Origin: Pomacea canaliculata
Taxonomy: Eukaryota
Direction: 5' to 3'
DNA length: 64,000 bases
Assembly (NCBI RefSeq): GCF_003073045.1
Contig: NC_037595.1
Span: 8,636,345 to 8,700,344, forward strand
The position numbers were made by a program, and so were the translations under genes. The notes beneath the pieces were generated by a model. That model saw only the letters and a program-made list of their open reading frames with translations, was not told the DNA's origin and made no database searches. Positions 6,001 through 48,360 of the stretch are shown one piece after another; the stretch's first letter is position 1, and each line of letters starts with the position of its first letter.

Positions 6001-9000
6001 CTGTTATCAGAATGTAGCAAACATTTACTGCTTTCTTGGTTAGGTTGTTCCAATGCTACAGCTATGTCAATTTCAAAGATGTTCCTAACTCTGCTTGCAA
6101 CAGCCAGATAGAAAAAGTGAAGTTAAAGCCTATTACATAACAAATGACCCAACATGTTCTCTACACCTGTGTCATGCCAAGGCATCAATATAAACAAAAT
6201 ATGTGACCTAAACAAGAAACCAATTTGTATGTACATATCTATTAAGATTACACCACTTAGAAAAAATAAAACCACAAATACTGTACAACTACAAAACTGC
6301 ACAATGTGATTGGGCAGTGTAATAAATTTATTACATATTTACACACAGTGCTGAGAATGTTGCCATTAAATGCAAATCCTTATTTATGTTGTAACTGCAT
6401 TTAAGATACATTTTCAGCAGCTTGGAAGTGAATTCCACATTTTTCTCACTATGTAAAAATTAGTAACACTTCATAAAAAAATCGCTTGACAAGAAACATG
6501 GGTTTAAAAAAATTAGGCTTACTTGAAACAATAAACAGGTAAAGTGAACATTAATAATTTAATGAAATAGTAAGATTTTTTTTTTAAAAAAAGGTGCTTT
6601 TAAAAAGTCACTGTCAGGCTTAAAACTCTGTACAACTGTCAGCAGGCATATCTCTATTAAGATATGTTTAACACAATAAAATTTAAGAATATGGCTCATT
6701 CTACAAAGTGCCAGATTTTTCTTACACCCTGACAAGAAAATTCAATAAAACAATTTAATTTATTTACCAACAAGATGATAATGCAAAAGCAGTTGTAACC
6801 AAACCTGGAAGCGATCAGGAGGAGCTAACTTAAGTTTCTGTCTCAGATCTTCAGGGGCACCAGCACACAGTCGGTAAAAGATGTGGTAGTTGCGCTCATC
6901 TTTGCTCTGACTGCAAACGCGTGATTTTTCTAGCAGGTAGTGGGATATAAAACCACCACACACAGAATTCTGTAACATATTGCACACAATGCTGCTTCAT
7001 AAATCTTGTTTATTATTATGTTGAATTGTATCAATATCAAAGAAGGCATATCAGAAAATTTTATTTCCACCCCAAATGTGAAAAAGTAAGTAACAATGTG
7101 CTTTTACCAAAAGCCAGTTTTAACATAAAACATGAACATAACAAGTTCTGCAAGTCAAATACAATGTACTGATATGATTATCATAATCAAGGTAAATCTT
7201 CCATTACAAAGTGTTCACAATGTGAAGCATCCTTTTCTAAAGGGAATTCTGAAAAAAGAACAAGCACTAGCATACTTGCTGCCATCAATAAGAATGACTG
7301 CATAGTCTGAGTTTCATACCGATGACAAATATCTGCTCAATCCATCCTCTTACCTTGCCATCAAAGTGGATCTCAACAAACTTGCCAAATCGACTGCTAT
7401 TGTTATTTCTGACTGTCTTGGCATTTCCAAAGGCTTCCAGCAAAGGATTTGCTGGAGAAAAAAAAACCAAACAAGTGCATGTAATCATTTGAATGAAGAT
7501 AAGCTCAAGTGTACTGAAGTTATACTGGTTTATGGCAATGAGCTGACACTTCAAGATTTGTATGTACACATGCATGCACAAAACAATTACAACATACACA
7601 GGCAATGGCAGGGTGTGTGTGTGTGTGGAGGGGGGGAAGGGAAATGTGAATATCTGTAAACTATTCCTATCTCTTGTCAACTGAGATTTGAAATGCTGGA
7701 TTACGATGCAGTGAAAATTGTAAGATGAATCCCCCCCCAACCCACCAAAAAAAAAAAAGATCTGATGTGTTTGTTGCACTATATACTGTTTATTTAAGAA
7801 AAAGGCACATTTGCACTTTAACATTGTTTTTTAAAGTTTATTCTTAATTCATGTTACAGCAGAATAAACCAGGCACTATATTTGGCCTGAACAAACAAGA
7901 TGTTTCACTGAGAACTGTATTAAAATGGCAAAATAAACTTTTTGAGAGTAAACCAGTTACTGAAAAGTTCTGAATTACATTAATTCAGCCACACTCTCTA
8001 GTTCAGCTGATGTAAGCCATCTAGTCCATTACTGTTGTAGCCCATGAAGACAAAACTTTATAATTCAGTATGCAGGTTTTCATAGACCCAAATAACCGAT
8101 TAACTATGCAGTGCACTGAATATATATAGTCTAGAACACATCTGCTTCACAGCTAAACAAAAAACTCTGAATTGTAAAAGAGTTAACAGAAGTCCATGAA
8201 GTTTTTTATTTTTTAAAAAATTTCAAACATGTACAATACCTGATACTGCACAAGTTGAAAAAATATAATTTTCAATTGTTGAAAAGTGATACTAACACTC
8301 CAGAATGCGCTGTTCAATAGGTCCTGCATGAGTGCCCCAGTTTTCTGTCAAGTACCGCAAGATGTATTTCGTGGACTCGGTCTTGCCAGCACCAGACTCT
8401 CCACTGACAATGACTGACTGGCTGACCTTGGTGACTTTCATGTCACGATATGCCTTATCAGCTGCCAAAAGCAAATATTCCCCCCAAAGTTTAGATTTAG
8501 CAGAAGAGGATTTAAGTAAAAAAGTAATTTATTACCTTAGCTTGTAAACAAGTTTAATGTACAATGACACAAGATTACATGCACAAGGGCTTCTATCAAG
8601 GGGGAAAAAACTATACAGCAAATAAGGGTTTCAATCTACAACAAGAGTGCAAGGTCTTGATGTACTAAAACAATAATGGAAATAAAAGTTGCTCAAACAA
8701 AGGCAGAAAGGTAATGGGAGTGAGATCAATGGAAAACAAATTTGTCAATTGCTGCTCCTTATTAAAGAAATTATCAACAATGGGGAAAGAACTGGGAAAC
8801 TACGGCTGGATGAAAAGACATCTAGTTCTTAAAGCACATGCCGTTTGAAAGATTTTCTTTTACAACCAGCCATGACCTACATTAAATACCAATGCAGTCA
8901 AAATATCCATACATGCATGATACAGTTAGCTCAAGTTAGTTCAGTTACATCACTGAGTGGAACAGCAGATAACAAGGCTTTCTTGTTTTTTGATTTTTTC

Positions 9001-20076: not shown

Positions 20077-23000
20077 ATGTCAGTATTTGACAATTGTCAG
20101 ATAGCTCTGGATCTTGGCATCAATGTGGGCTTCAAGAAGAAAGTGGAACTACGCAAAGCCATCACTGAAAATGGTGGTGTGGTCTCATACATTGTCACCC
20201 AGAAGGTGTAGATATCTTTGTTTTCTGTGTATGATATATTTTTTTGTCATCAAAATTATTTGTAAATTTTAATTTGGAAGATATGTGTAACGAAGGGTTG
20301 TATTTACATATATACAGGGCTTCTGCTAAGGCTAAATTCTTTGGGGTCCCAGGGACCCCTTCTTCAGATTTTTAAGGGGTCCCTGTTCTTCGCCCAAATT
20401 TGAATGGGACCCCATTGACGAAAATTGAAGGGGTCCTCCGAACCGTACTGTACACAATTTTTTTGCGTAAGCAGAAGCCCTGATATAAATATATGTGTAT
20501 TGGGGAAATAGAGAAAGAGATACTTCTTATTTCATACTTTTCTTTCATTGTCTATTAATATAGTCAATCATAAGTAACATAACACTTAACATGTTGCTCT
20601 AAAAGTGAACACATTTTCAGTATGCTGGGCAGTCTGAAAAAATAAAGGGTGCAATCTTTTGCATTCTGCCTGCATAGTATTTTTTTAATCCTTTATGATG
20701 CAATACTTCAGTATCCCTCCTGTTCTCCTGATAATCATCCAAGTTTGATTGATAAACTGAACTCAGATTACAGCTGCCCAAAAATAAGAAAGCTTACACC
20801 TTTTAAAATTTGGCATTGGCACAAGGATCTTATGTGATCTGTTGCTGGCTGTGGTAAATGATAGAGAGGCAGATAGGAGGTTTAGTCAGTTCAAAACAAA
20901 TAATAATCAATACACTAATTGCCTTTAATTACTTGATTAAGTTTATTGCCTTAACACATTTCCTTGAATTGTTAACACTGTCGTTGGGCCTTTCCATTAC
21001 TAGTGTTCCTTTGTGGTGGCAAGTGATCCAGAGAAGTGTGATGTGTCCTCCAAGTGTCGTATGGCCCTCAAATATTGCCTTCCTGTGGTCAGCATGGACT
21101 ACATCTGGGACTCTTTATGTGCTGGGAAAAGATTAGCAATTGATCAGTATGCAATTGCTGGGAAGAGCAAAGGACTGGACTTTCGTTCTGGCAAGATCTC
21201 AGGTTAGGACTCTGGGCACTGATCCTAACAAAGAACTTATGAAATTTGAGGAAAAAGCTTAATCTTTAAGAGCATTCAGAATGTGCTTTCATTACATGAA
21301 TGCAAGTTTATTTTATAAAATTATAATTGAAGAATGTTGTCAAAATGAACAAGGAATAAATAAACAAGTATAACTTTGATGTCAGGGTGTTTTAAAGTTT
21401 AGAGTGTAATTGTCCATGAAATATCTATCCCTGGACTTGTTCTAAATTGGACTTTTGTCATTTGTGGTATAACACCTACTGTATTTTTATAGCACTTAAG
21501 AAACAAGACACTAAAACGATGAGTCGACATACTATCAAGCCACATTTTAATATTCGAAATGTGAAAGTGTGGCAGGCAGGTGATCCAGATGAGCCTCACT
21601 TTGATGAAAACTTTGAAATTGCCAAGTATGCTGTTTTTCAGGTAGGACCATCCATCTGAGCTGATTCTGTTTAAAAAAAAACTAAGTAGAAGAAAAGTAA
21701 AACATTTTTATGTGATGAAGATCAGAGCTATACCTTATATATGGGGAAACACTTATTAAATGAGTTTGACTAAGTATTAGTGGCAACTTAATTGTTTCCT
21801 CCCCTTTACTCCTTTTTAAGTTAATTCACAATTTGCATGTCATTATTTTATCTGGCTGAACTGGATTCAGAGCAAAACTATATATGTGTTAGCAGGATTA
21901 CTGATAGTATTGGTAGTAGGAAGACATGAAAAATAATAATATGGACATATGTAATGAATTTTCCCACTTTGCAGTAGGCACAATGAACTTTGCTAAATAA
22001 AGACACAGAACATATCGGTAAACTGAAATATTTAGATATATCAACAGCCATAAATACATGATAGAAAAAAAGAAACATCCACTCAAGTCCTGACAGATTC
22101 AAGGCATCAAACTTATACCAATAATATCTGCTGGTCAGGTTATGCCACAACATTGCAACATCAAATGTATAGCAGTAATGTCTGCCAGTCAAGGTAGGAA
22201 AGCACAAAAGCCAGACACCTTTTTCCTCACAACAGTTAAAGTGCTCAGTCTTATACTTTTTTAGCTGGTAGAAGCCTTACTTTTATATCACTAAGCATGA
22301 TTATGATAGATTTATGTGATGTTAATATTAGCTCTAACAGGTCTCTTGCTGATCCAACAGGGCCAGAACAAGAAACAGGACCTGACCACATTCTACTCAC
22401 TAGAGATTCACGTTGGAAGCAATGCTGGCAAGAAGGAGAACGGCAATGCTGAGCGGCAGTATAGACTCTATTCACACTTTGGAAACCTTACAGATGCAGT
22501 TGTGGGTGCCAAAAACCCTTTATCTTCCTTCCTTGTAATCCTGATAATTAGAATATTTAGACATAATAATAGGGATAATCATTAAAATAATAAAAGGTTG
22601 CTATTAATTTGTTATCCAGTGTGTAATGTATATTATTTGGTATTGGTTTATTGGTTATACTGGATTCCACAGGCTGGCAATCCCTGCAAGACAGAGATTT
22701 ACCACGTGGCTAACGCTGATCAGGCTCTTGCAGGATTTGCAACCCTTTACAGTGCTCAAATGAAAGACCACAAAATGCAGAAAGTGGAGAGTACAGTGCT
22801 ACGAAACGTGGGATCACGTAAGCTTCAACAGGTAGGAATGACGTGTCTCATTTAGATTAGATTGGAAAAAAAGTCTCTTCATAGTAACATTGTTGCCAGC
22901 TAAACTTGATGAAATAATTTAAAGAAAGACAAAGATAGATATATTTTTTATTTTCTTCCTCCAAAAAGGTCTTTACTTTTGTTTCAGATTCTTACAGAAC

Positions 23001-26000
23001 TGGAGAGTGAAGTAGGAGTAGCCTCTCGTGAAGTACAGAACCTGACAGAGCACATCTGGTTAGAAGCTATTGGAGAAGTGGAGGCTGTCCTTGCATCCAC
23101 AATATCTTCTGTGAAAGTGGAAGAGGCAAAGACTTTCTTTTCATTGCTTTGTGCATGTGTTTACATGTGTGCATGTGTACATATATGTACCTGAATCAGT
23201 GACATGTTCATTATTTTTCAACTAAAATGAAATATTGTATAACGAAACAGTGATTGGTCTATAGGTTGAGAAAGCTGAAGCACTTCTGGTTAAGATACGA
23301 GATGCTCTTGGCAAGGAGGTAGATGGGGATGTCACTTCTCTTGTCAAAGAATTCTACAGCACTCTTCCTCACAAATCTGAAGATGGAGGTAGCATGAAGC
23401 CATCTAGAGCATGGCTGTCAAAGAAACAAGATCTCTGTCAGGTAATCGTAGGGTTCATTTATTAGTGTATTCATATATATATGGGAGTGTATGTGATAGA
23501 GATAGAAAGACTAATGTCTGTGAGTCTGAAATTAAGGGTTAAATCCTAGGTCACTGTTGAAGACATTTGTCAAAGAAGTTCCAATCACAGTATCTCATCA
23601 GTGCTTCTAAAATTTTACTAATCTAATTTTTGTATTTTATATTCTCACTGTAGTAGGTTTAAGATTTTACAGGAGTTGAATAGAAATTCATTTGACCTTA
23701 TGCAAGTGTAAGATTTTCTTCTTTCAAAGTTGATGCTTTCTCATAATCCACCGAAGGTAATTTGGGTTTTGCTTTATTTTTCAGCAAACATATTTTTACA
23801 TGACCCTGTTATGCTTGCCATTCATTACTTGTGCGCATTGTTACTACAAAAAAAAACAATGGAAGCTATACTGTGATATTTTATCACCTTTTCTGTTTCC
23901 TGTATTAGCTAATAAGAGACATGGTGTCTGTGAGTGAAGCCACATCCTGGTCAGCACGCTCCAGTGCTCAGGCCAAGTACCGTGCCCTGCGCTGCAATAT
24001 TTCCTATCTAGAGCCAGGCACACAGGAACATAAGCAGATCATGGAAGATGTTGTTTCTTCTATCAACAAGTAAGGAGAACTTCTGTGCGATTATTTATTC
24101 CCTTTTTGTTCAACACATCACTCCTGTTAATTTTGCATGTTACAGAATCCACAAAAATCACCTTTATCACCTCACTTATGTCAGGCACATTTTTCATGAA
24201 AAGAAGTCTCCAATCATGTCAAACAGAACATACCTAATTCTTGCACATCTATATATATATGTGAGTAAAAAGTGATCCAATCTTACTGTAACCGAGTGTT
24301 GCGTGGTGAGGGGAGTAGAACAGTGACCACAACAGTCCAGCACTCAAACCAGAAAGGCAGGAGCCTGTCAGCAGTTACACAATTCTTTTAATGCCAATAG
24401 ATCTACAGTCACGGCTGCGTCGCTTGTCTCGCGTCTTCTCTTCGTAGTTTTCTCCCCTGTCCTTACGTCTCAGCTCTGCCCTTATATACCTCGCGGGTGT
24501 GTCACTTTTCGCGCTCTTTTGCATCAGCGTACTTTTCGCGCTCTTTTGTATCAGCATACTTTTCGCGCTCTTTCACAATCGTACCTTTACTTACTGGCAT
24601 GCATTAGCATTTTCTGCCTAACAAGCGCTGGACTACCGGCCATCTACATCCCCGCCAACTCTTTCTCTAACAGCGCCCTCGCTGATGAACTTTTGCTAGC
24701 AATACTAGGGCTGATATACAAGCTCGCCTAATATGTTTATGAGGGTGGGGCAGGTATCTTAAATATTTTAAATCAAGAAACATCTGTTGCTGCTGAGGCA
24801 CAATGTGTCTATAAGGGCAGGCATTCCGTCAATCTGTAATTTCTGTCAATGATATTTTGTAGACGCAGCCGTGGCAAAACAAGAAGAAAATAAACAAAAT
24901 ATCAAACTAATCAATGCTTACACCACATCTATGTTATCTACAGTGTCAATGAATAGTGTCACACAACCGTTTTCTCCCCATGTGAGTTTTATGCCTGTCT
25001 AACAGCAAACCGCGGCTGGAATACTGCAGGCACTGTCCCTTCTGGAATCACACTTACTGTCATATCAGGCACCACAGATACTGTCATTTCTGAAACCACA
25101 GGCACTGTCAGTTTTGGTACTGTCATATCTGGCACTGCACACACTGTCACTTCTGGAACCACAGGTACTGTCACTTCTGGCACCACAGGCACTGTCACTT
25201 TTGGTATTAATCTTGTTCTGGCTTGATGGGGTGGAAGAGTACCATACCAGAACGGAGTTTCTTCGTCACTGTCGTAGTCCTGACAATTCTGTGTCTCCGG
25301 CAGTTGAATATCTTCTAACTGCAGAGACGACTTCGCTGCTCTGTTGTCGCTATTGAGGGTCAGTGCAGGGCCGTCAACAAGGGGCCTGACTGTATACACA
25401 GCACTGTCATTAACTGGCCGGCTGGAGATATTACAGGTACTCCGGCCGCTCCGCCCATGGAATCTGTCCCGTTGCAGTTCTGCTTGGCTTTGCCGTCGCT
25501 GTGGTTGTTGCTGTTGTAGTTGCACCACTGGCTTGTTTTGAAACTCTTTCTTTGACATCGGCCGGCGATCACTGCCCCGGCATTTCACTCCTCCGATACC
25601 ACAGACGAACGTGGCTTGAACGCCCTTGTATGACAGTCTGGGTTCAAATTCCACCACTTCACCTTTGCCGAGGCTGCGAAAGCCTGCCTTGTGAATAACT
25701 GAATGGTGGACAAAGACGTCTTGATCGCCATTATCAGGTGTGATGAATCCCCATCCCTTTGCCACGTTGAACCACCTGCAGAAACCTCGCCTTCTGCCCC
25801 CTCCACCATCGCTGTCATCCGAGATGTTGTTAATCGCTGCCGCTTGTACGCCGCGCCGCCCTCCGCCTCGCCTGTAAAAGCTGTTTGTGATAGGGCTGAA
25901 TCTTTGACCATCTCGTTGTCTTGCCTGCTGTCGTCGCAGGTATCTCTGTTTATGCTGACAATCAGCCTCCCGGTGCCCCTCTCGTTCGCACCAATAGCAC

Positions 26001-29000
26001 ACAAGTGCCGCCGGTCGTGCGGTGCGGGTGGAGGGGATATTATTTTGTTGGATCCTATGAGGCTGGGAGGCCGTCTCCATTTCCAGCTGCCTGACTCGTG
26101 CAGTCAGGCGATCTATCTCATCCTCCCTGTCTTCATTGCCCTCCTCCTCTCTCTCTACACGCTTTGCCGTCTTCAGTAGGTCGGCAAAGGAAGAGGACTC
26201 ATTGTCAGCCAGGTGTCTAGAAGTTTCCCGTCGAACATGACAATTCTTCAGCCCCTTCACAAACTGGGCCGCCAGGTGGATATTTAACATAGCGCCGCTC
26301 TGCAGGCTGTTTGCTTTTGCCTGCAAATTGCGGAGCGTCGTGGCATACTCATCAACGGACTCTTCATGCCGCTGTCGGCGGTTATAAAAACTGGCGATGA
26401 CATCGACGACATCTTTCCGTTCGCCGTACGCCTCAACCAACACATCCAAGATCTTTTTGGGTGTGTCGATAGCGTCATGCGGTTGCATCAATACTCGCCG
26501 TCTGGCCGGTCCCTCCAGCGCGTTGAGAACATAGACACACGCCGCATTCTGCGGCATCGGGTTCATAGTGAGAGCCCACTGAACTTCTCTTTGGAACTCC
26601 TCCACATTCGGTGTTGGTCCGCCGGCAAACTTTTGGAGGCGAAATAACTGATATGTGCGTAAAGCCTCTACTGGGCTGTCTCCGTCTTCAGCCATTGTGC
26701 ACTTTTTCCCGCTGACAAATAATCCTGCTCGCAGCGCCAATTGATGTAACCGAGTGTTGCGTGGTGAGGGGAGTAGAACAGTGACCACAACAGTCCAGCA
26801 CTCAAACCAGAAAGGCAGGAGCCTGTCAGCAGTTACACAATTCTTTTAATGCCAATAGATCTACAGTCACGGCTGCGTCGCTTGTCTCGCGTCTTCTCTT
26901 CGTAGTTTTCTCCCCTGTCCTTACGTCTCAGCTCTGCCCTTATATACCTCGCGGGTGTGTCACTTTTCGCGCTCTTTTGCATCAGCGTACTTTTCGCGCT
27001 CTTTTGTATCAGCATACTTTTCGCGCTCTTTCACAATCGTACCTTTACTTACTGGCATGCATTAGCATTTTCTGCCTAACAAGCGCTGGACTACCGGCCA
27101 TCTACATTACAAGTACTATGCATGTGTATATGTATATGTAGATATAAAGCAATTATTTAACCATTTTGCAATTTTTGGTTGCCTCTAGATTTAGTTTTAC
27201 AAAAGCTGCAAATGAGGTATTTGGAACTGAGAATGAATAGGGAATTTCACCACTTGGATATACTTTTTAACAAGATGTATTTTTTCAGGATCTTTCTGAG
27301 TACTGGTGCATAATTTATTTCATAATGATATCACTAATATAGATATATATAATTAAAGAGTTAAGCTCTTTTAGGACCATGTACATATCTGATTTAAAAA
27401 GTCTTATCCTACCTACACAGTCTGTAGCTGATTATGATCAGCTTCTATTATTTTTACATCATTCATGTCCTCACTGTACACTACTTTTCTGTACATTTTG
27501 TTTTCAGAAAAATGACCATAAATATCACCAACATTTATGCTGTTCAAAGACCCATTGAAGATGCACATTTTCAACATGATATGGACAACAAGCGTCATCT
27601 CTTCCATTCTTCAAAAGTAGAAAATTTTCTTGGGATACTTTCAAGGTTTGTTCAATTTATTCCCAATAAAGTGAAAAGGCTGTGACAGCTGTAATTTTTT
27701 TCAATCAGATGGAAAATATGTTGAAGACAATCTGTATCTTTATGGCAGAATGTCACTGGTTTGGAAGCTACGTAGAAAAAGCTCCGGAGAAAATTCCCCA
27801 CTCTCCAGAGGAAATGAGTATCTGATAATTCAATATCTAGTAGTATATATAAACCTTTTTGGTGTTGGACCAATGAAATGTTAAGAGATTGCACTTTTCT
27901 TGGGACCAGATTTTTGTGGATCAGTTGGAGGAAGTGCTGCACTAGCCAGTGCACGTCTTAGGGCTTGGAAGCCAATGCTCTAACTACTGGGCACTCTGCT
28001 TCCCTTACCTTTTACCAGGAGACATTTAGTTTATTGCATAACCTTGAAATATGAACAAAAGCAAACCCCAAAACATAAAATTGTATAATATCAGTGATCA
28101 GAGGTTGGTACAGTGTTATCAGATAAGCCTGCAAGTAGTTGAAATAGCATGTCTTGTATTTAAAGAAAATTTTTATCACAGAGGATTGCTCTTACCTAAA
28201 GTCGTGGCAGATGACTTTGGTGGCACTCGGACTGATGCTGGAATGCTTGGATGTGGAATCTACTTTGCTAGTGATGCAAGGTAGGTCTTACTGAAAATTA
28301 GAACTCTTGAAATAATATTATAAGCTTTTTTTCATGGTCTAGAAAATGGATAGTGTGTATTATAAGACAACTGGATCTACATCACTATTTAACTTAAAGT
28401 TTTTTACAAATGAGTGGTTAGTATGACGTTAAAGCATCAAACTTGTAGCACTCCGCTCCATAGAAAAACTCCTCAGTGTGAGGAATGTTATGTCAACCTT
28501 TCTTTCAAAGAAAAGGAAAAAAATCCCATGACCAAGCCCGGGCCCCCTTCACAGATTCGGGCCCGGTTACACCAGACCAGCTACACTTTTGCCCCCCTAC
28601 CTTATCAGGCCTGGCCATGTATGATGGGATAGGGACTGTACTTATGAAGTGAGAGTAAGTCGTTTTCCTATGGCAAAGTAAGGAACTAAAGGAAAAGCAT
28701 CTTGTTTCTGGTTGTAAGGCAGTGTTGAGACACTGCTTCATGTTTCCTTTTCCTATGATACCTCTGCCACTGCTCTATAACTATGGCTTCAGGGGTAAAA
28801 ACAACATCTGCAGGATCCAGACATCACTTATAACTTCAGAAACAAGATGTTTATTCTTGATTTGTCACCTTGCTCCAAGGCAGAGAGGATTACCCTCGCT
28901 TCATAACTATAGACCCTGATTTTCCCATAGTGCACTACAGGATAACAGGTATTATGAATCCTGGCCAGTGTCATAGGAAAGATGATCATTAGGCTAAGTG

Positions 29001-32000
29001 TTCAGTTTGTTCTTCTGCTATGTGTTTACTGCTACATGGTCAGTCCAAATGGCTTGATGAACAAGGTTGGTTTTTGTAACTCGGCGTTCAGTTTTAGATT
29101 TAGTACTTTACACCTATACAAGCATTCAGCTCTTCTGAAATTTTGACTCTTTACCAAGATGACTACAATTTTCCTTTTATATTATTTATCTAATGTTAAC
29201 AGTAATGAATGTGTTCATAGTTGAACTACATCACGTTTCAGTAAATCAGTATAATATTCGCAGAGCAATGAACTAATGATGGAGGCATACATTTTATTCA
29301 TCATTTTATCCAGCAAAAGTGCCCTGTACTCAACCCCAAGCAAAACTAAAGGAACAAGACTGTTGCTTGTGAATGAAGTAGCCCTTGGACAGTGTTATGA
29401 TTATACTGCTATTGACACCACTTTGACAAAACCACCTGAAGGATATAACAGTGTTCATGGTGTGGGAAAGAAAAATGATAACTCCTCACATTTTGAGGTA
29501 TGTCAAACATGGATCTGTTTACTGCAGTCATAGAGCTTTTTTCCTAAAAGTCTCTTTTTCATTTATAGAATTGAAGAATATAAACACTGAATAAATTTTT
29601 CATTGATGGACCTCCAGCAATGGTCAAAACTTCCTGCATGCACATCCTGTGTCCAGAACTTAATTCTTGATTGCGTTAAGTATTTTGGGGGGTATTTCTT
29701 CACTTAAGTGTTATTCATGATACCTGGCTCTTTTATATAACATGCTTTTAGACAATTATAGGAGATTAAAGCTTTGTATTCTACAGACATTTCTTTGTGG
29801 TTTGCAGGATGATGAATATGTTGTTTATAGTGTCAACCAGCAGAGATTGCGCTACTTAGTAGAGTTTACTATTAACCAGGAGCAGCCAAGAAGTATGGTG
29901 ACATTAGACAATGTTTTAATGGAAACAGAGGACTTGGTTTCCATGGAATCTTGTGAAATTGGTGAGATTGTTTACTAATCCCTGTTGAATCAATAGGAAG
30001 TAAAGTATTTTAGTGACAGAAAGTTTCTGTCCAAGACAAAAAAGCATTTGTATGTATTAACTCAATACTATGCAATTTTGGTAGAGCCAGAGAGTGTGCT
30101 GTTGATCACCAGCTGGACTTTGCAGTTATTTTGAATATTTTATACCCTATGATTGTTTACTGTTCTTGGCATGCAGCTGCTGCATTCAAAATAGGAATAA
30201 ACTCTAGAGCAACATACCTTGAAATTTATTATTTTTTTTTTATATGGCTCCATGACTGAGTTAATCGGGTAGTGTGGGAGAGACTATGCATGTGTGCATT
30301 CTATCATAGCTCTGGTATGTTGCTTAATATTCATTTTCCAACCCTACATTGATGGTTCCATCAAGAAAAAAATTCTTTCTACAGATCTTCATGATGTTCA
30401 GAATGTTCGAGATCCAGTGGAAAGTGTCAAACTAGGCCTTGTTGTGGAGAATCAGGAGGGTCTAGTGGAACTGAAGAGTGTTCACGTCAGAGCAAAACTT
30501 GTTGATTTGGCAGCTCAGGTCCTCTAGAGTTCTTTTGTGTAATTTTTAAAATCCAGATTCCCCTTTTTGTGTTTCATCTTTAATGTGCCTTTCATGAAGT
30601 CAGACTAATTAATTGTTATGACAATCTTACCAGTTTGCTTTTTAAAATTATTCATTATTCATTGATAAAGTCCTTTTAAGAGAATAACAAAAATCTCTAC
30701 ATTATGCTTTCATTCTTGGTATTGGTTTGAACTGGTTTTCATTATAAAATTGACAATGAATCATGTTTACACATTGTTCTTTATCTGTAGGTCACTGTCT
30801 TACAAGAATATGTCAACAACAGCATGTATCCAGTAGAGGCAAAGTATGTTTTCCCACTTGGCGATGGGGCAGCTGTGTGTGGCTTTGAGGCCTTCATCAA
30901 TGACAAGCACATTGTGGGAGAGGTAAAGGAGAAGGAGACAGCCCACAGGGAATACAAACAGGCCATCAGTGAAGGCCATGGGGCATACTTGATGGACCAA
31001 GATGAAGAGACTCCAGTATGTCTTGCGTAACTGTATATCAGCATTGATAGTTATAAGGCCACGTAAGAGAGAGAGAGACGGAGACAGAGATTTTGATAAT
31101 TCTTTATTAACACTGGTGTTTTATAATGTTGTGCCTTTTTCACAGGTTTTTCCCTAGAGAAAGAAAATAATTAGTTAAACAAGAGAATAATATTATAACA
31201 ATATGCATTGACCACCAAGAAGTCTCAAGAAAAGGAATATCTAAAAGAGAGAGGGAAAGAAAAAAGGATTTACATAGATGTATGTGTAGACTTATGAACA
31301 ATAAAGAAATCTTTTGAGGAGAAAAACGAGAGATAACACTCATTTCCCAAACTCTTGTATTATTTGAAATATCGCATCCATGATTTGACAATAAACCATA
31401 ACATAGTTATTCTTTTTCAGGATGTGTTTACAGTCAGTGTCGGCAACCTACCACCTGGCGCCACAGTGTTGATTAAGATTACTTACGTAGCTGAATTACA
31501 GGTAGAAGAGGAAATCATTAGCTTCAGGCTACCTGGCAGTGTGGCACCATGGAAGAAAGAGTCAGCAGGCAAAGAGAAGACACAGGTAGGTTGCTGCCTT
31601 TGAGTTAGTTAAAGTTTCATAAAGTTAATTAAATTTTTAAAGTATTGATTATGTTGTTTTTTTCTGAGGGTGTTCATGCTGATTGGAATGCAGTAACACC
31701 TTTCTTCCACTGCTGTTTGTTTTACTTAAAGGATAAGGTACTAAAATCTTTAAAATATTCAATGATATGCACGTTTTTGAGATTTGATATGATGTTGCGA
31801 GATGTGTTTTATCATCTCGTAAAATTTAATACAATCTGAACAATTAGAAGTACCTTTTGTTAAAAAAAAAACAACTTTATAGGCTTACCTGGTTTTCTCA
31901 AACTGCCTACTACTGTACTTTCACACTTCAAACCTCTATGACTCACTCAAATTTGGGACAAGAAGGACAAATCTGATATTAAACCTGTCGATTTTAAATT

Positions 32001-35000
32001 ATAAGGTTTTTAAAATCTCATATTTTGTTTAGGTAGGACTCATTTTGTAGTGGCAGGTCACATATTTTTGCTGCTTCCAGGACAAAACAAAAACTTTTAA
32101 GCTCAGTAGTGGGCAAGTCAGCATTCAAGTTGCTGTGGAGATGCCTTTTGACATCAAGAGTCTTGTCTGCCCTACCCATTTTGTGAGAATGAAGGTAATG
32201 TGCTTCCTGTCTGTTCACATTTTAACTTGGAACTTAACATTGGGTCTGATTCAAGTTTGCATCAATTACATGAGATGCCATTTTAACAAATCCTGTGTTG
32301 TCTCCTTTATGTAAAATTTTTAGTCTTTTTTCCCTCTAAAGTTATTGTGAAGGGATCTCGCTCAGAAAACTTGTTTCTTTGTTTTTATATGATGAACTCT
32401 GCTGGTATCAAAAGCAAACAACATCCCTTCAACTTTTTTCCCCATCTTTATTTTTCTGTATTTCTTTGGTAGGAAAAGATGATAGAATCAGGCTTACCCC
32501 ATTACTCACAATTGTTCTGTTGCTTACTCTTGTAAATAATAAATGTAAGCAATGTAACTAATAAAATGTAACCAATGTAAATAATAAATGAGCATTGATT
32601 TAATACTTCAAAATATATATGGATATAAATTATGAATTCACAGGGTCGTTTGTCGTGTCTGCTGTGATCCCTTGATTTTGTATGCCTTTTGCCAGAAAAC
32701 AGCCACCAAGGCAGTAATAGAACTGAAACCTGGCCAGGATATCCAGGAAGGGTTCCAGATTCTCATTGGTCTTGCTGAGATACATGTTCCTCGAATGTGG
32801 GTAGAACGACACCCTGATCAGCCAGATCATGAGGTACTCTCAAGAGGTGGAGGGAGTGGGGGTACAGAAAGAGTATGTCTTTTGTGCTTCTGTGTGTGTT
32901 TGCATATGTGTGTATTTGTAAGCGAGAATAGATATTTAGCTGTATATGAATTACTATTTACTATTACATTTATGGAGTATGAAAGCATGAATACCAGTGT
33001 TGATGAGTATGCATCTTTGTATAAGGTATTTGTCTTTCCTACCTTAATTATTTGACCATGACAGATTTAATTTTCTGTTTTTTTTGTATAGCAAATGTTC
33101 CAGGTTTGTTCATGTGTGTTTAGCAAGTTGTTAATGTTGTTTTTGGCTTCAATATAGGGGTATACATACTTGATTTTATCTTAGCTATTCCATCATTAAA
33201 AGTTTTTATGTAATATTTCTTTTCTTTATGTTATATGGACTGCAGGCCTGCATGCTGACCTTTTATCCAGAATTTGAAGTGGGGTCAGAGGTCAGTTCAG
33301 AATTGGTTCTGCTGCTGGATGTGTCAAATTCAATGAAAGGGGCATCACTCCAAAGTGCAAAGAAGTTAGCAAAGTTGATTCTTCTCACTATGGATGCCAG
33401 CTGGAAATTCAATGTTGTTGTATTTGGAACAAGTAAGTTCTGTATGTTTCTTTAAACATCTCATCTTTTTTTTTTTAAACAAGAGGAAAGACATGATCTT
33501 AATTTTTAGTTTACATAAACACATTTTTTAATTCTTGTGGGATATAAAAATGAACTGAACAAGTAGCTGATATATTCAAAAGGAAAAAAAGTTAAACTTT
33601 TGTAGTTTGAAAGGAGAGAGACTGAAGAATGCTCTAGACAAGATACTGAGGCAGGATTTCAACAGGGTAAATCATGCACAGACCATATTATTATTGAACA
33701 GTCCTTCGAATGGCAGTCACCACTCTACATCACCTTTGGGAATTTTGAGAAGGCTTTTGATTCCGTAGACAAGGAAGCCATTAGGAAGTTGATGGAGCAC
33801 TACGGATTGCCACCAAAGTTCATTGCTATCATCCATCAGCTGTATGAGGACTAGACATGCCAGGTGATCCATGATGGGAAGCTGACTGACTCCTTCGCAG
33901 TTAGGACTGGAGTGAGGCAAGGTTGTATGCTCTCGCCAACAATCTTCCTGATAGTCATAGATTGGATCATGAGAAGAACAACCTCTAGCAGCAATATGGT
34001 GGACTTTCACCAGGCAACATGAGGATCTCGACTTTGCGGATGACATCAGCCTGTTGTCCCACAAGCGGCAACACGCACAGACAAAGCTCACTCGACTCTC
34101 AGAAGAAGCAGCAATGACTGGCCTGACCATCAACATTAAGAAGACGGAGGTAATGCAAGTCGACAATAAGAAGCCCCACTACAACTACATTGGGAATGTA
34201 TTGCAGATTCTGACCATTTCACCTACCTTGGCAGTATAGTCAGCAAATATGGAGGTGCAGATGAAGATGTAAGAAGCCGAATAAATAAAGCCAGGCTTGC
34301 ATTCCACACCCTGCGACCTATCTGGAGCTCCAAGGCACTATCACTATCTCGATCTACACACCAAGATCCGCATCTTAAACGCAAATATAAAGTCAGTCCT
34401 TCTATACGGATCTGTGACATGGTGTGTGACAAATGCCATCCCCAACAAGATTCAGACATTTGTCTACAGATGTCTGCGCCACATCCTCAATATCAGATGC
34501 ACCCAGAAGATCTCCAACACAGACCTGTGGCAGAGAACTAACCAAAAACCTTCCAGCCAGAAGCGAAAGTGGGGCTGGATCGGTCACATTTTGTGAAAGC
34601 TGGCCGACAATTTAACAAGACAAACTCTGGGCTGGAACTCACAGAGGCAGCGCAGGGTTGGGAGGCCCAAACAGACATGGAGGAGATCAGTCCACAATGA
34701 GGCTGGCATGACATGGTCCCAACTGGAAAGGGGTGCCTAGAACCTGATCCAATGGCGTGGTGTAGTTGTGGCCTTATGCTCCACTGGGGGTGATTAGGAA
34801 CAAGAAGACAAGAAGAAGTCTGAAAGGAAAGTATCACAGAGAAAGCTTTTCTGTATTCAGCTTTCTTGTATTTTTAAACAGAATATTGTTAACATACTGA
34901 TTCTAGTTATCAACTACAGGCATTACCTGTTAAGGCAATAACTGTCAGAACTATGCAGAAGATAGCCCAAGTGCAGAATGTTTATGGTATTGCTATAAAG

Positions 35001-38000
35001 TAAAATCTGCAGAAAAGAGGTTAAAGTACTGTGCAATATTTTGAACATACTCATCTCATTCTTTTATGTCTTAATCTTCTTTGTTGCACCAATTTAGTTA
35101 TTACTTTTCTTTAAAATAAATTTTACAATTGTCAGTAGAATGTCCAAGTTTTTGCTTTCAGGATACAGTGAGCTATTTCCATGTGCTCGACCAAAAAATG
35201 AGACCACATTACAAGAAGCTGAAAAATTCGTACAGGTTCAAAAAATTGCCGATTATCATAGATTAAAGTAATTTTAAAGCTCATTTTGTTTTTGAAAAAT
35301 CAGTTCATGTCATAAAATTAATCTAAGAATAAAAAGGGATTTTTCGAACTAACGTGAACTAAAAATTACTGCTTGTTTAAACAGTTTTAAGTGTTAATCA
35401 AAATTTGTAAATTATAGATACAAATAGTGTATTAATTTTTTTCCTGAAACTTTATCATTACACCACAGTTCAGCATTTTGTTTATAAATAAACTAATAAA
35501 TACCATAAAAAGGACTTAATGGGACTATAATGCAATTTAATCTTGCAGCAAGCCCAAGCAGATATGGGTAACACTGAAGTGTTCCGACCTCTTCATGCTT
35601 ACTTCCTCTTGCCACCAGCTAACCAAGCCCTGAGAAATGTGTTCTTGATATCAGATGGTCATCTTAACAATGAATCTTCTGTGTTGAAGGATGCTAGCAA
35701 CAACTATCATCATACCCGCATCTTCACTTTTGGTGTCAGGTGAGAAAGATGGTAGACTGAGAAAGAGAAGAGGGGAGAGAGTTTGGAGAGAGAGAAGAAA
35801 TTAGAGAAGTAGGAGAGACATGAAGTGAGAAAGAATGTGAGAGGTAGAAGAGGGGAAAAGAAAAAGATAAGGGATGGGCAGAAATTATGTGCAGTCACCA
35901 ACAAGCATGTGCCCGTGTGCTGGCACACTTACAAAAACACACATGAACACACTTATAAACATAACCTTCATGACTCAATGTATAAATATGAACTGAACAA
36001 AGAGCTACTACTTATTGTGAATTAATTGTTTATGCATCAAAGGAAGGAAATGGAAGTTTTGCTTCTTTTTAATATGGATTGAAAATGAAGTTCACTTTTA
36101 ATCTTAGCTCATCCTGCAATGCCTACTCACTGCGAGCTCTTGCTCGCATATCTGCTGGCTCATTTGAGTTCTTTGACACCAAAGTCAAATCCAAATGGGA
36201 AGAAAAAGTGAAGGGCCAGCTGCGAAAAGCTGGCCAGCCAGGCCTGACATCTGTCCGTGTTGACTGGCGTCAGTATGATGACAATTTGCCACCACCTGTG
36301 CAAGCTCCATGCCGTATCACAGCATTGTTCAGTGGAGCTCGACAGGTCATCTATGGCTTTGTGCCCAATTGTACAATGGTGAGCGATGCTATGTTAATTT
36401 TTTATAGAACGTTTTAACAATTATTTTTATTATTCAGGGAATGAGATGACAGTGATTTCATTGGGAAAAACAGATGCAGGAGTTGAGGGAGAAAGAAAGA
36501 ATAACCATATTATGTTGGTATTTCTTCTGTTTCAGGCATTTCTTTCTGCTGTTGTGGGAGGTCAGGAAGTTTCTACAGTTGTGTCAACATCTGATCTTGC
36601 CATCACAACTGGATTGGTGAGATAATTAGCAAGCTATAGAGATGTGGATTTTGATTTCCTATGGATGTCTGGTCATTAGCATGATGGACTGATATAGAGA
36701 GAAGAGACGTAGTGTCCTGCAAGTCTAACTGAAATATGACTGTAGGTTTAAATTTTTTTCTGCATAGTAATGGAAATATGATTTTATAATATTTTAGTCT
36801 CTGGTGCTTGTTACTGTCTGTAAAGACTTCTTTAAAAAATGTCAACATTTAAAAATAATAGACAACAATCATATCAAGATATAGTGTGTGAGTGTGTTCA
36901 TGTCTGTACATATAAACATGAATGCATTTGATCAATTTATTTATTTCTTCTTACGTATTACTACAAAATTTTCAGAGAAGTAAGTGACAGTTTCTTGTAA
37001 AAATGTAAATTCTTAAATTAATAATTCTTTTGTATTTAAAAAAAAATGTTTCATTTCTGTGAAGGTTGTACACAGACTGACAGCTCGAGCTTTGATACAG
37101 GACTGGGAAACAGGAATGCTGTCTGATGACCGCACACATCATGAGGTTAGCATTGAGAACAAAGGAAAACCTCCCTTCTTTCCTGACATATTTTTGTCTC
37201 ATAGCAAAGTTACAAGTCTGCCCTTGCACCTGAAGCCTAGCATACACTTTAGATCTTGGAGCAGTGGTTTGAGACACAGTGTTAGGACAGTGCTATGAGT
37301 TGTTTCTCTGTTAATTTTACTTAACAACCCAACTATTAGGAGCTTTGGAGCTATAACTTCTCTTTAACCAAGTGACTACTACTCATGTTCTGTGGGGTTA
37401 GTGGTCCTGTCCTCAAGGAGTTCAACCACACCCTCAACCACAAGATAAATCTTTATAAAAAGTAATGAGCAATGCTTTTGTTTGGTTTATGGCCTACGCT
37501 AGATGCACACCTTGCTGTCATCATGCTCTTTAGTCTGTCCTACTGCTTGATTGCCTTTGTTTCTCAGCTGTTCGCTGGGGCTGTTTTTTTAATTGACAAT
37601 AACCATGGAGCATTTTTGTTTATGCTTTATTTTCCTGTACATTGTTGTCTGCCTTTTGGGTTGGTAAAGGGATCTAAAGATTGTATTATGTGTACATTAT
37701 ATACATTTTATCTATTCCCACTTAGTTATGTTTCCATGAATCAGAATACATAGTATGCAGATTTCTTTTTTTTACTGCTTTAAGCCAAAGGTGATTGTAG
37801 CCATGAAAATTAACTATGCTATTAAAGACAATCCTTAAGAATGAAGTGAGCATTCGTAATTCATCGCTAGTTTGTTCTGATTATCTGCAGGTGGTTCGAA
37901 TGGATGAAAACAGAATATCATTGAGCTGAGCAAGGAGTACTCCATAGTCACGCAGTTCACCTCCTTTATAGCTGTTGAAAAGCGGGACAAGGTGGGAATA

Positions 38001-45150: not shown

Positions 45151-45801
45151 ATGAATGTTACAGATGTTGAGTGGGGTGGCGAAGATGTCAACATTGACAG
45201 ATTCTCGAAGCACTCGTCCGAGTCTTTTTTAGTGCCATGTTTGTCTGGTATGTCAGACTCCGTCTCACAAAGTAATAGTATCAGCAGAAGAAGACTCGCA
45301 GGAGGAAGACCAGGTGGTAGAGGCAGAAAAGCATACCTGGACAGTGAAGATTCTGCAGACCGATTCATGGTAACCCGGAGTTGTGAGTCAGCAGACATGG
45401 ATTCGTTCTTTCGTCGGAGTAGTGCGAAAAGAACTGATGTTCAGGACATGGCGTCAGCACCATACTTTAAAGCATCTGCTGGAGAATCTGAAGAATCTGA
45501 AGCATTAGAGCTTCTTAACAGAGGTAGAGGCCATCCCGTATACTCTCCAAGGTCTCCGACGTATCAAAAGCAGAGTTTTGGGGAAATTTTACAATCAACT
45601 TCATCCGCAGGAGGAATTGTACAAGCTCAGCCAGCAGCCCAAGGACAGAATCTGATGTTTGGAGCCGCACCGTTTTCTGTAAAACCATGTTCCTTTCAAC
45701 AACCCACGGGTAGATCTGAAGAAGAACCAGAGCTGGAAGCAGCACAGAGTGTATTTTTAGGCCCTATACGTTCACGGTCAGACCTGCAGTGGCTTCAGTA
45801 G
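45151..45801 (+). CDS. Intronless ORF part 1 (216 codons): a Ser/Arg-rich and acidic N-terminal region ending in an FG-like motif. It is joined, apparently by a frameshift, to the repeat ORF that follows.
   Basis: An ATG at 45151 follows a CpG-rich stretch (gtttgcgcgcgcgcgtctgtctcggg at about 44.82 kb). The product contains SPRSPTYQKQSFGEI and MFGAAPFSVKPCSFQQ. The frame-1 stop TAG is at 45799-45801, while frame 3 is open from 45720, giving an 80 nt overlap. Confidence 0.4.
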   Translation: MNVTDVEWGGEDVNIDRFSKHSSESFLVPCLSGMSDSVSQSNSISRRRLAGGRPGGRGRKAYLDSEDSADRFMVTRSCESADMDSFFRRSSAKRTDVQDMASAPYFKASAGESEESEALELLNRGRGHPVYSPRSPTYQKQSFGEILQSTSSAGGIVQAQPAAQGQNLMFGAAPFSVKPCSFQQPTGRSEEEPELEAAQSVFLGPIRSRSDLQWLQ

Positions 45802-46500
45802 GTCTCTTTGGTTGCAAGGCTTCAATGCCAGCTTCAATTGAAATGTTAGCTTCAGCGAGATCCCCTTTAGTTGGATTTGGAGGCATGGATTCTTCAAAGG
45901 CAACAGGTTTTGGGACAACATTTGGATTTGGAGGGGACGCACATTCAGGAGTCTTTGGAGCAGCACCTTTCTCACAGACTGCACCGTTAGCAGCACCTTT
46001 AGTACAGGCTATACCGCCAGCAGCATTTTTCTCACAGACTACACCGTCAGCAGCATTTTTCTCACAGACTGCACCGCCAGCAGCACCTTTCCCACAGATT
46101 TCAACGCAAGCAGCATTTTTCTCACAGACTACACCGTTAGCAGCACCTTTAGTACAGGCTACATCGCCAGCAGAATTTTTCTCACAGACTACACCGTCAG
46201 CAGCACCTTTACTACAGGCTACACCGTCAGCAGCACCTTTCCCACAGATTTCAACGCAAGCAGCATTTTTCTCACAGACTGCACCGCCAGCAGCACCTTT
46301 CGCACAGATTAAACCGTCAGCAGCATTTTTATCACGGGCTACAGCGCCAGCAGCACCTTTCTCACAGGCTACACCGCCAGCAGCATTTTTCTCACAGACT
46401 GCACCGTCATCAACACCTTTCCCACAGACTACAGTACAACGCCACTCACATTCAAATGCCAGTGCCGAAGTGCCGGTGTGTGTCCCAATGGGTAAGCAAG
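45720..46500 (+). CDS. ORF part 2 (about 260 codons), encoding FGFGG/VFGAAPF motifs and then about 13 tandem copies of an 11-aa unit (FFSQT[AT]P[PS]AAP / FPQISTQAA / LVQATSPAE).
   Basis: The translation reads GFGGMDSSKATGFGTTFGFGGDAHSGVFGAAPFSQTAPLAAPLVQAIPPAAFFSQTTPSAAFFSQTAPPAAPFPQISTQAAFFSQTTPLAAP.... The underlying DNA is a 33 bp-period tandem repeat (cagcagca(t/c)ttt(t/c)ctcacagactacaccg(t/c)). The frame-3 upstream stop is a TGA at 45717-45719. The track's 'M' at 45789 is a GTG, so the true start is unclear. Confidence 0.4.
45960..46440 (+). repeat. 33 bp-period tandem repeat array of about 14 imperfect copies, forming the coding repeats of the ORF above.
   Basis: Units such as ctcacagactacaccgtcagcagcatttttc and ctcacagactgcaccgccagcagcacctttc recur head-to-tail. 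Confidence 0.7.
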
Positions 46501-48360
46501 CAGTCTTATTGTTTTTTCAGTTGTTTTATTTGTTTGTTTATTTATTTGTTTACCGTGTTTGGTATTAAGAAGCAAAGAAAACTAATGGAAAAATATTCCA
46601 TATCATTTGAATATAATATGAATTAGCAGAAGACCTCCAGTAAACGTTAAAATTTCTTCTTATTTGACACAAGAAAAATTTCATTTGTTGATATCTATAA
46701 AATTAAAATGATCTAACAAGCTAATAGTGGATGTAAATAATTTATATGAATACTGGACGTTTCAGAAAAGTCGGTTGGCTTAGAGCCAACTCCTTTCTTT
46801 CGCAAGAGATGGCGACTTTCCAGGTTTGTTTGATGCATCTGAATTGTTGAGTAATAACCTGTGAAATACACTTGCAGAAACTCGCAGCTCAAAGCAAGTT
46901 GTCAGGGTCTCCGAAGCTTTTTCTTTTTTTTTTTGTATTCACAGGTTCTTTTGATTGCATGCTGCTTTTTTTGTTTTGTTTTGATCGACAGATTCTGATT
47001 GCCCTATTTTATTTGTTGTGGTTACCATTCTTCATGGTGTCCAACATTTTTAAGATCTTGTTCTCGATTCTGATTTTTTTTTATTATAACACCGACATTA
47101 ACTTTCAGTTCTGCTTCATCCATGGTTCTTCTTGTGTCCGACATGCCATTATGGGACCATTTTCACTTGGACTTAAAGCGATCCGGGACGACTAAACTGT
47201 CTCCTGTAACTTAGTCTGCATCGATCTGCATTCAGAGCAGACGTCTGTAGTCGGCAGTTTGTCTTTGATGACCTAGCACCCCTCTACAACCTGGAAGTAG
47301 GCGCTGTCCTTGACAGACATGCACCGCTCTCCACCCGCTGTGTCGCTGATTGCCAACCTACCCCATGGCTCATCCCTGAGGTTTGAAAACAATTGCAAAG
47401 AGAGCGCGGCATCGGTTGAAAGCCAGTGGAGAAAGGCGAGCCTCACGGCTCACACATATTTTTTCCTGTGTCACAGGGAGATGACAAAGCGTTGGTGTAG
47501 TTCTTCAAACATTCGATTTAAAAAAAAAGGCAAGCCAGACTAATATTCATCAAGTAGGGATTGATTTCGGATTGTGCGCCAGATGTTAAGCCAAAACTAA
47601 GGTGCCTTCTACCATTCTTCTTGAACAGCCGCCTGATATGTTCTTTAAATACTTTCTGAAAAAGTCGGGGATGGACCCACAGTCTCACAATTCTAGTTTT
47701 GGTGTTTCCTCCTGAGTTTGTCCCTGTCGCCGAGTCCCAGGTCAGGAGATCGTCAGAAATTCTCCAAAGAAATCTTGTTTCTCGACTCGATTACGTCCCG
47801 TCTCCTACACGAGTGCCTTGACTTGACCACTCGAGTTATCACTCAGCTGGAACTATTCTGCTGACTCCTAATCTTCATCATTTTCATTCATACATTTAAT
47901 TTGTGTTTGCCGTAGTGTTTTCCCTTTACAAACGCTGTGTTTCTGTCGGTTTGTTTGTAGTCTTTCGCGTGCAGCGCATGGACCTCGCATCCACACGGGA
48001 GAGTGCGCTTCACAAATTGAACTGTTTTATTATTCGTAGTAGTAATATGCCCAATTTGCACTTTATCTAGACGAGAGCAGTAAGAACAAGTAAGACTTAA
48101 CCTGCAAAATACTACATTTTGAAGCGCAATAACAATTGTATTATACTGCTTACAAAGAGTTAAGGGTCAGAGAATATCTCGCAAAAAATCATCCGCAGGT
48201 GTGACTTTTCATGTTGTACTTTGATTATTTGTTCGATAGTAAAGTGAGAAAAGTAATTTCTTTTCTAAATCATTTCTGTTCCAAGATACAGGCAGTCAAA
48301 AATACTCCCGACCCCCGAATCAGAAAGTCACAGGACCTGTCAGAGCACTTCGGCATAGCA

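Follow-up and report, generated by a model that had tools for sequence, protein, structure and literature searches.

A pol-less Ty3/gypsy-type retroelement of Pomacea canaliculata with a Lin28-like cold-shock domain in its Gag protein

The 64,000-nucleotide stretch of Pomacea canaliculata DNA analyzed here (assembly GCF_003073045.1, contig NC_037595.1, positions 8,636,345 to 8,700,344 of the forward strand; referred to below as the window, with positions counted from its first letter) contains a long terminal repeat (LTR) retroelement that occupies positions 24287–27106, totals 2820 bp, and reads on the minus strand. Its only open reading frame (ORF) encodes a protein in which a Ty3/gypsy Gag with a single CCHC zinc knuckle is joined to a cold-shock domain (CSD) derived from Lin28, and no pol gene accompanies it. 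We are highly confident of this identity and origin of the element. The broader reading, according to which the element belongs to a helper-dependent, gag-only Ty3/gypsy family, built like the Gag-onc retroviruses and using the CSD as a nucleic-acid-binding module, appears likely as a whole; for the nucleocapsid-like role of the CSD taken by itself, the chances seem to be about even.

The architecture of the element is that of an LTR retrotransposon, with direct repeats, TG..CA ends, a target-site duplication (TSD), a primer-binding site (PBS), and a polypurine tract (PPT). The 5' LTR, in the orientation of the element (26745–27106, minus strand), and the 3' LTR (24287–24648, minus strand) show 100% identity along their 362 bp (363 with one ambiguous T included), start with TGTA and end with TACA, and are flanked on the outside by the same 4 bp, TTAC, at 24283–24286 on the left and 27107–27110 on the right. 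Since the LTRs are identical, the insertion is recent. The LTR has a TATA box (TATATAAG) at its nt 161, corresponding to 26946–26939 in the 5' LTR, and the sequence ATTAAA at its nt 257, corresponding to 24392–24387 in the 3' LTR, and the layout from promoter to poly(A) signal is intact. A tandem repeat in U3, with a period of 27 bp and 2.6 copies, is positioned at 26962–27031 in the 5' LTR and at 24504–24573 in the 3' LTR. The PBS, a TGG-initiated 18-mer (TGGCGCTGCGAGCAGGAT, 26722–26739, minus strand), is located 5 nt past the 5' LTR, whose counterpart at the other end of the element is abutted by a 20-base putative PPT (AGAGAAAGAGTTGGCGGGGA, 24649–24668, minus strand), with both position and purine richness fitting such a function. 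The leader, from the predicted transcription start to the start of gag, includes no upstream ATG. The 3' untranslated internal region (24669–24988, minus strand, ~320 bp) shows no coding similarity and, in the orientation of the element, no listed ORF of 60 or more residues, whereas an Rfam scan of both strands of the whole element gave no match. No further copies of the element or of its LTR are present in the window. A previous reading of the letters (below, the sequence-only reading) had described a structurally complete LTR element without pol, with one ORF, identical 362-bp LTRs, a 4-bp TTAC duplication, a PBS, a PPT, 27-bp U3 repeats, a TATA box, and ATTAAA; each of these was located in the sequence, and the LTRs agree at 362 of 362 bp.

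The ORF (24989–26695, minus strand) consists of 568 residues and a stop codon, is the longest in the window, and stands alone between the LTRs. It comprises, in this order, the Gag part, the CCHC knuckle, the Lin28 fragment, a segment resembling the tail of integrase, and octapeptide repeats. No reverse transcriptase (RT), RNaseH, or integrase core could be found between the LTRs. Lacking pol, and with it an RT and integrase of its own, the element is not an autonomous member of Ty3/gypsy but a non-autonomous derivative. The octapeptide repeats (24-nt units encoding VTVPVVPE-like sequences; 25032–25204, minus strand) are found near the C terminus in two arrays, each with a TRF period of 24 and 3.6 copies, and their copy number differs among the paralogues described below. 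This repeat had also been reported in the sequence-only reading, but as directly following the CSD, whereas it starts about 110 residues beyond it.

The Lin28-derived segment, residues 296–388 (25532–25810, minus strand), includes the GGGGRRRG sequence of the Lin28 N terminus, the CSD, and the linker that follows. The Pfam CSD profile, PF00313, matches residues 303–365 (nt 25601–25789) with E=5.9e-20 and 71.4 bits against a cutoff of 27, and the RNP1 and RNP2 motifs (KGWGFI and VFVHH, respectively) are intact. Among PDB sequences, the CSD is matched by CSD and LIN28A chains at E~1e-18, the LIN28A chains at E~3e-18 continuing through the post-CSD linker, so that the domain is indeed a genuine CSD, as had been proposed. 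Its earlier designation as “Lin28/Y-box-type” is correct in its first half only. In a search with residues 296–400, the top matches are molluscan Lin28 proteins, 70–76% identical (Solemya, Ruditapes, Saccostrea, Patella, Mytilus, Biomphalaria), far ahead of Y-box proteins and bacterial cold-shock proteins. A Y-box origin of the CSD was rejected, the YBX matches (E from 1e-9 to 1e-4, 45% identity) being far weaker than those to Lin28. The similarity to Lin28 extends from the N-terminal GGGGRRRG to the linker and ends just before the two CCHC knuckles of Lin28; the sequence beyond it is unrelated to Lin28. Thus, although the CSD and linker are closest to Lin28, the two knuckles that Lin28 carries C-terminally to its CSD are absent from the element, and for this reason its protein is not a Lin28 protein.

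The comparison with individual lin-28 genes provides details on the origin of this segment. The element shares the motif GFC with Biomphalaria and CGIGG with both Pomacea and Biomphalaria, as well as one further 10-residue stretch with the lin-28 exons of caenogastropods (Pomacea, Batillaria). The relevant lin-28 exon is found in the Logan contigs L004 and L005, in which it encodes a protein identical to the P. canaliculata annotation and is bordered by canonical splice sites (...TTTTTCAG/TCG ... ATCAG/GTGAGT, with slashes marking the borders). Over the 168 nt of this Pomacea-type exon, the DNA of the element is 80% identical, with dS=0.73, dN=0.126, and dN/dS=0.17 (synonymous and nonsynonymous divergence and their ratio), and the homology stops at most two codons from the 3' border of the exon. 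The intron that interrupts the host CSD (after VFVHQ) is missing from the element, indicating capture from a spliced lin-28 mRNA. A neighbor-joining tree of the Lin28 segment, a comparison with Lin28 that the sequence-only reading had called for, places the CSDs of the element family as a monophyletic group (92% bootstrap) nested in molluscan Lin28. Their position beside the Pomacea and Batillaria exons has weak support (44% bootstrap over 56 residues) and does not date the capture. These features point to a single capture from a spliced gastropod lin-28 mRNA, which was either not very recent or was followed by fast evolution.

The N-terminal ~290 residues of the ORF make up an entire Gag of the Ty3/gypsy type, in which there is a single CCHC knuckle. 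The capsid-like region includes residues 10–209 (26069–26668, minus strand), and the knuckle, residues 233–246 (25958–25999, minus strand), has the canonical spacing C-X2-C-X4-H-X4-C and aligns with the sequence CFWCERPGH.E.(D/E)C in the gags of autonomous relatives. When the 568-residue ORF was compared with Pfam, as had been suggested earlier, PF00313 was recovered (E=5.9e-20), whereas PF03732 (Retrotrans_gag, E~0.02, as for PNMA) and PF00098 (zf-CCHC, E=0.05) were below the cutoff, and the identity of Gag was therefore drawn from intermediates found with phmmer. With residues 1–295 as the query, a phmmer search of 1.8 billion representative proteins returned 682 relatives at E<=1e-3, with 121 at E<=1e-10. 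The closest of them outside Pomacea, P0188, P0189, and P0190, are gag ORFs of 318–358 residues, 40–46% identical to the query (E=1e-47 for P0189). In locus L003, from SRR16971106, the 358-residue gag P0189 is followed by a 1255-residue pol (RVT_1, RT_RNaseH, Integrase_H2C2, and rve); in locus L002, an ORF with an aspartic protease comes after gag P0188 and shares 56% identity with the L003 pol. The proteins P0292 and P0329, matched at E~1e-10 to 1e-11, are Gag-Pol polyproteins with a PNMA-type Gag, zf-CCHC, RT-RNaseH, and integrase. The alignment to the gags of the relatives spans the capsid, the knuckle, and the RG-rich gag tail, stopping near residue 280; the ORF thus starts with a complete Ty3/gypsy Gag, homologous to Gags that are linked to a protease–RT–RNaseH–integrase pol. 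The earlier description of a Ty3/gypsy-like Gag with one CCHC knuckle is in agreement with these relatives, which adjoin pol. A PDB sequence search with Gag produced a weak match to Ty3 Gag (E=0.007), along with spurious matches to TAL-effector repeats, and no relatives emerged when JGI metagenomes were scanned with a degenerate pattern of the Gag half.

Residues 422–496 (25208–25432, minus strand), located between the Lin28 fragment and the octapeptide repeats, resemble the extreme C terminus of Ty3/gypsy integrase. The match to residues 1164–1225 (of 1255) of the L003 pol, a region positioned past the integrase core, extends over 62 residues with 37% identity and 35.8 bits (E=2e-6 uncorrected, 0.007 after correction for composition). 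None of 500 shuffled sequences reached this score, their mean being 18.6 and their maximum 29.6. The aligned segments read ...LQLEDIQL...DSDEE in the element and VISRPFGPNSPVYSVRQL...LDFEDIEL...DSDDD in the L003 pol. Because the tail matches the C terminus of integrase, pol would have been replaced rather than never present, and the arrangement suggests that lin-28 cDNA took the place of the pol core, leaving the 3' end of the integrase gene in frame.

A link to autonomous elements is also visible in the PBS. The autonomous relative L003 has an identical PBS 19-mer in the same place, despite Gags that are only ~40% identical, and the exact 18-mer is found in at least 120 JGI metagenome contigs. 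Downstream of it, L071 carries related gag and pol, L016 a related gag, and other contigs pol-like sequence. Being present in L003, L071, and L016, the PBS is characteristic of this Ty3/gypsy lineage, autonomous elements included, which makes wide use of it as a primer site. The PBS may resemble the complement of the 3' end of a tRNA-Ser; a scan for tRNA genes in the window and in 16 fetched PBS-bearing loci found none.

The element in the window belongs to a family with at least eight paralogues in P. canaliculata, the apple snail that also supplied all of the best protein matches, and these paralogues are distributed over at least six scaffolds. Seven paralogues, labeled by NCBI as ‘uncharacterized protein LOC...’, match the full ORF, and the eighth, P0067, matches the Gag half. 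The junction between the CSD and the tail is the same in all seven paralogues that reach it, at an overall identity of 57–79%. As this junction is common to diverged paralogues, the pol-less architecture must be older than the diversification of the family, and its propagation without autonomy has been long-term. The ORFs remain intact (512–568 residues) in copies that are ~66–77% identical overall, and the Lin28 fragment is in frame in all paralogues. In comparison with the window copy, the Gag of P0002 and P0004 is 72–74% identical, the Lin28 segment 90%, and the tail 79%; for P0005, the corresponding values are 68% (over only 38 aligned Gag residues), 90%, and 79%. The Lin28 segment is thus the most conserved part in these three comparisons. 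P0001, with 75% identity in Gag, 97% in the Lin28 segment, and 98% in the tail, is a mosaic, a pattern expected from recombination between co-packaged RNAs. In the five paralogue proteins of subfamily B, as read from gene models, 20 residues that include the knuckle are missing and the last knuckle Cys is replaced by Arg, while the CSD is almost invariant. The identical LTRs and the intact ORF give the window copy a young appearance, which suggests that the family could be active to this day. Its host is an invasive snail for which good genome resources exist. Exact-protein look-ups for the window ORF, P0001, P0002, and P0204 returned no contigs. One P. canaliculata gene model of 482 residues, P0007 (C0Q70_04163), has the CSD–tail part of a family member (96% identical) joined to ~300 unrelated residues; either the annotation is chimeric or a fragment of an element has been exonised.

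The favored explanation of these features is that an ancestor of the family would have lost its protease–RT–RNaseH–integrase core and gained in its place a fragment of spliced lin-28 mRNA, most likely when the reverse transcriptase switched templates on co-packaged RNA, the route also taken in oncogene transduction by retroviruses. On one side, the fragment would have been fused in frame with the end of gag; on its downstream side, it apparently continues into the final ~80 codons of integrase. The LTR promoter would then give rise to one mRNA and to one unprocessed protein, with the order capsid, CCHC knuckle, Lin28 CSD, and tail. For reverse transcription and integration, the element would depend on an autonomous relative, primed by the same tRNA, that provides Pol in trans, and the element's own Gag-CSD protein probably co-assembles into the particles. 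The CSD would serve as an added module for binding and chaperoning of single-stranded nucleic acid that favors packaging of the element's own RNA, and may be a replacement module in the subfamily with knuckle-less predicted proteins. The capture mechanism, the mobilization in trans, and the role of the CSD are inferred: mobilization in trans is consistent with the identical LTRs and TSD, the dispersed copies, and the PBS shared with autonomous relatives, and a nucleocapsid-like role is suggested by the low dN/dS, by a knuckle that seems dispensable, and by the conservation of both the RNP motifs and the aromatic residues. The stronger version, in which the captured OB-fold took over the nucleocapsid function and became the sole nucleic-acid-binding and chaperone module of Gag in the knuckle-less subfamily, is tentative and, on balance, doubtful.

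A number of observations weigh against this explanation. The integrase-tail match is weak after composition correction (E=0.007) and comes from one comparison sequence. The nearest pol-bearing relatives are just ~40% identical in Gag. The conservation of the CSD may be confounded by recombination between subfamilies, P0001 being clearly mosaic, and the dN/dS against the host exon blends a strongly constrained host branch with that of the element; both points weaken the argument for selection on the CSD. The loss of the knuckle in subfamily B, seen in gene models rather than in DNA, could be due in part to mispredicted introns. An AlphaFold2 model based on an alignment of nine family sequences (pLDDT 37, pTM 0.22) is uninformative.

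Among other explanations, the most probable regards the Lin28 fragment as a passenger without a role, a neutral by-product of a single template switch that also deleted pol; the family would then spread only owing to the LTRs, PBS, PPT, and packaging signals that it retained, and perhaps to its Gag. The capture of seemingly functionless fragments is common in plant LTR retrotransposons (rice/sorghum survey, PMC3726574). Moreover, the monophyletic CSDs and the shared junction place one event behind all copies, so that the presence of the CSD in each of them is not by itself a proof of usefulness. A passenger, however, would hardly be expected to stay in frame in all paralogues with RNP1 and RNP2 kept, to be 90% identical where the tail is 79% and Gag 72–74% identical, or to show a dN/dS of 0.17 at a dS of 0.73 and lie within intact ORFs of 512–568 residues in copies ~66–77% identical; we therefore consider this explanation rather unlikely. 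Still less support can be given to manipulation of the host, in which the Gag-Lin28(CSD) protein would mimic or compete with Lin28 on pre-let-7 or on mRNAs and thereby shift cells toward a state favorable to the expression and transmission of retroelements. The build of the element does parallel that of replication-defective transducing retroviruses, the donor is a regulator of developmental timing and pluripotency, and the nucleic-acid-binding motifs of the CSD are conserved. Yet the zinc knuckles of Lin28, which in the published Lin28–let-7 structures provide specificity for GGAG in pre-let-7 and support recruitment of TUT4/7, were not captured, the CSD is ~25% diverged from the host exon, and nothing observed bears on let-7, making this scenario improbable.

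The sequence-only reading had left open whether a gag-only element captured an RNA-chaperone domain of its host or a domesticated gene was recently mobilized. The 80% DNA identity to the host exon, the missing intron, and the monophyly within molluscan Lin28 favor capture. Domestication would mean that the snail co-opted a gag-CSD gene and that the locus is a copy of this gene rather than a mobile element, and it could account for the seven paralogues being annotated by NCBI as ordinary genes; co-option of Gag and fusions of gag with host genes are known (PMC8321522). The window copy, however, has identical LTRs, TSD, PPT, and a PBS shared with autonomous elements, and is inserted antisense in an intron of another gene, whereas the family, with its at least eight dispersed paralogues, mosaic members, and variable repeat numbers, behaves like a transposon. 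Domestication as the general explanation is thus quite improbable, though individual old copies could have been co-opted. Finally, a misassembly might have created both the direct repeats and the chimeric ORF, since assemblers can generate perfectly identical repeats, but TG..CA forms the precise ends of the repeats and the 4-bp TSD beside them matches, the PBS and PPT are in the required places, and independent P. canaliculata gene models encode the same gag–CSD–tail junctions, leaving next to no room for an artifact.

The element can be compared with several known systems. In transducing retroviruses such as MC29 (Gag-Myc) and Abelson murine leukemia virus (Gag-Abl), pol is deleted and spliced host cDNA is found in frame with gag; they keep the LTRs, PBS, and PPT, depend on a helper, and presumably arose by template switching on co-packaged host RNA. 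The snail element is similar to them in the absence of pol, the fusion of spliced host cDNA to gag, and the retention of LTRs, PBS, and PPT. Gag-onc retroviruses, however, are exogenous, short-lived, and selected in somatic tumors, whereas the snail element forms a germ-line family that diversified (57–79% identity) while retaining its cargo, and, in contrast to the Gag-onc cargo, its Lin28 CSD gives no sign of acting on the host. The maize element Bs1 is missing pol functions and contains fragments of host genes that form a chimeric ORF with gag. In captures of the Bs1 type, the cargo consists of enzyme or other gene fragments unrelated to the function of Gag, unlike the cargo of the snail element, which is a complete nucleic-acid-binding domain in the position of nucleocapsid, conserved across the family. 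Capture of host genes by LTR elements has also been reported in the rice/sorghum survey (PMC3726574) and for a crocodilian endogenous retrovirus (PMC4299795).

TR-GAG elements of plants are shorter than 4 kb, with LTRs, PBS, PPT, and a single Gag-only ORF without pol (PMC4350172, 2015), and as they appear active, they are presumed to be mobilized in trans (PMC4350172). With 2820 bp and one ORF, the snail element has the structure by which TR-GAGs are defined, although that class was defined in plants and the snail ORF also contains non-Gag domains; where a TR-GAG encodes a plain Gag, the snail ORF adds a host Lin28 CSD and an apparent remnant of integrase. Host Lin28 itself, which consists of a CSD and two CCHC knuckles, is homologous by descent to the CSD and linker of the element, and both proteins combine a CSD with a retroviral-type CCHC knuckle. 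Their order is nevertheless reversed in the element, where the knuckle precedes the CSD, originates from Gag, and is accompanied by a capsid domain.

A metagenome protein with a comparable combination of domains, P0027/P0345, is encoded at 240–1610 of locus L001 (ENA ERZ27289266) by one uninterrupted, intronless ORF on a 1.66-kb contig in which no LTRs are visible. Its domains are Ty3_capsid, DEK_C, and a CSD of the Lin28 type, and both knuckles of Lin28 persist as decayed remnants. It is like the snail protein in having a capsid and a Lin28-type CSD, but the junctions differ, and DEK_C and the knuckle remnants are found only in P0027. As there is no BLASTP similarity between the Gags, and the CSDs are just 48% identical, P0027 was rejected as a member of the snail family. 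Its gag-Lin28 fusion probably arose independently and hints that fusions of a capsid with a Lin28 CSD may have arisen more than once.

Gag-only LTR elements and the transduction of host genes by retroelements are each known separately. A search of full-text literature gave no report in which the Gag of a retrotransposon is connected with Lin28 or a cold-shock domain, and a transduced host RNA-binding domain within Gag, kept through the diversification of a family, is undescribed in the literature searched. The element would be an animal counterpart of plant TR-GAGs, as well as a germ-line analogue of Gag-onc retroviruses, with a stem-cell and developmental-timing regulator as the cargo. If the CSD acts as a nucleocapsid module, the family would amount to a domain swap performed by nature, informative on the selection and chaperoning of RNA by retroelements, and the module might give a non-autonomous element an edge in the competition for helper machinery. 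Had it taken over the nucleocapsid function altogether, a cold-shock domain from the host would package and anneal the RNA in place of a zinc knuckle.

The gene that hosts the insertion can be recognized from open frames on the plus strand, which encode, in this order, BRCT (21004–21204), the PARP catalytic domain (27428–29975), VIT (30791–31600), and VWA (33174–35740). This is the domain order of PARP4 (vault PARP), hence the host is a PARP4-type gene, and the element is located in its BRCT–PARP intron in the antisense orientation, in agreement with the antisense position in a PARP4 intron given by the sequence-only reading. A later intron of the same gene contains a frameshifted fragment of a non-LTR (LINE-type) reverse transcriptase (33571–34700, plus strand), in which the motif FADDISLL is visible and one piece has a weak match to Pfam RVT_1 (E=0.0015). 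Upstream, on the opposite strand, an ORF at 7285–7824 (minus strand) appears to resemble the switch-I region of a myosin motor domain and probably belongs to a myosin-type gene. Two long open frames of 216 and 259 residues are found at 45151–46568 (plus strand), the longer one with degenerate FFSQT(A/T)P.AAP repeats, and could belong to the PARP4-type gene as a low-complexity exon or else be a repeat in its own right.

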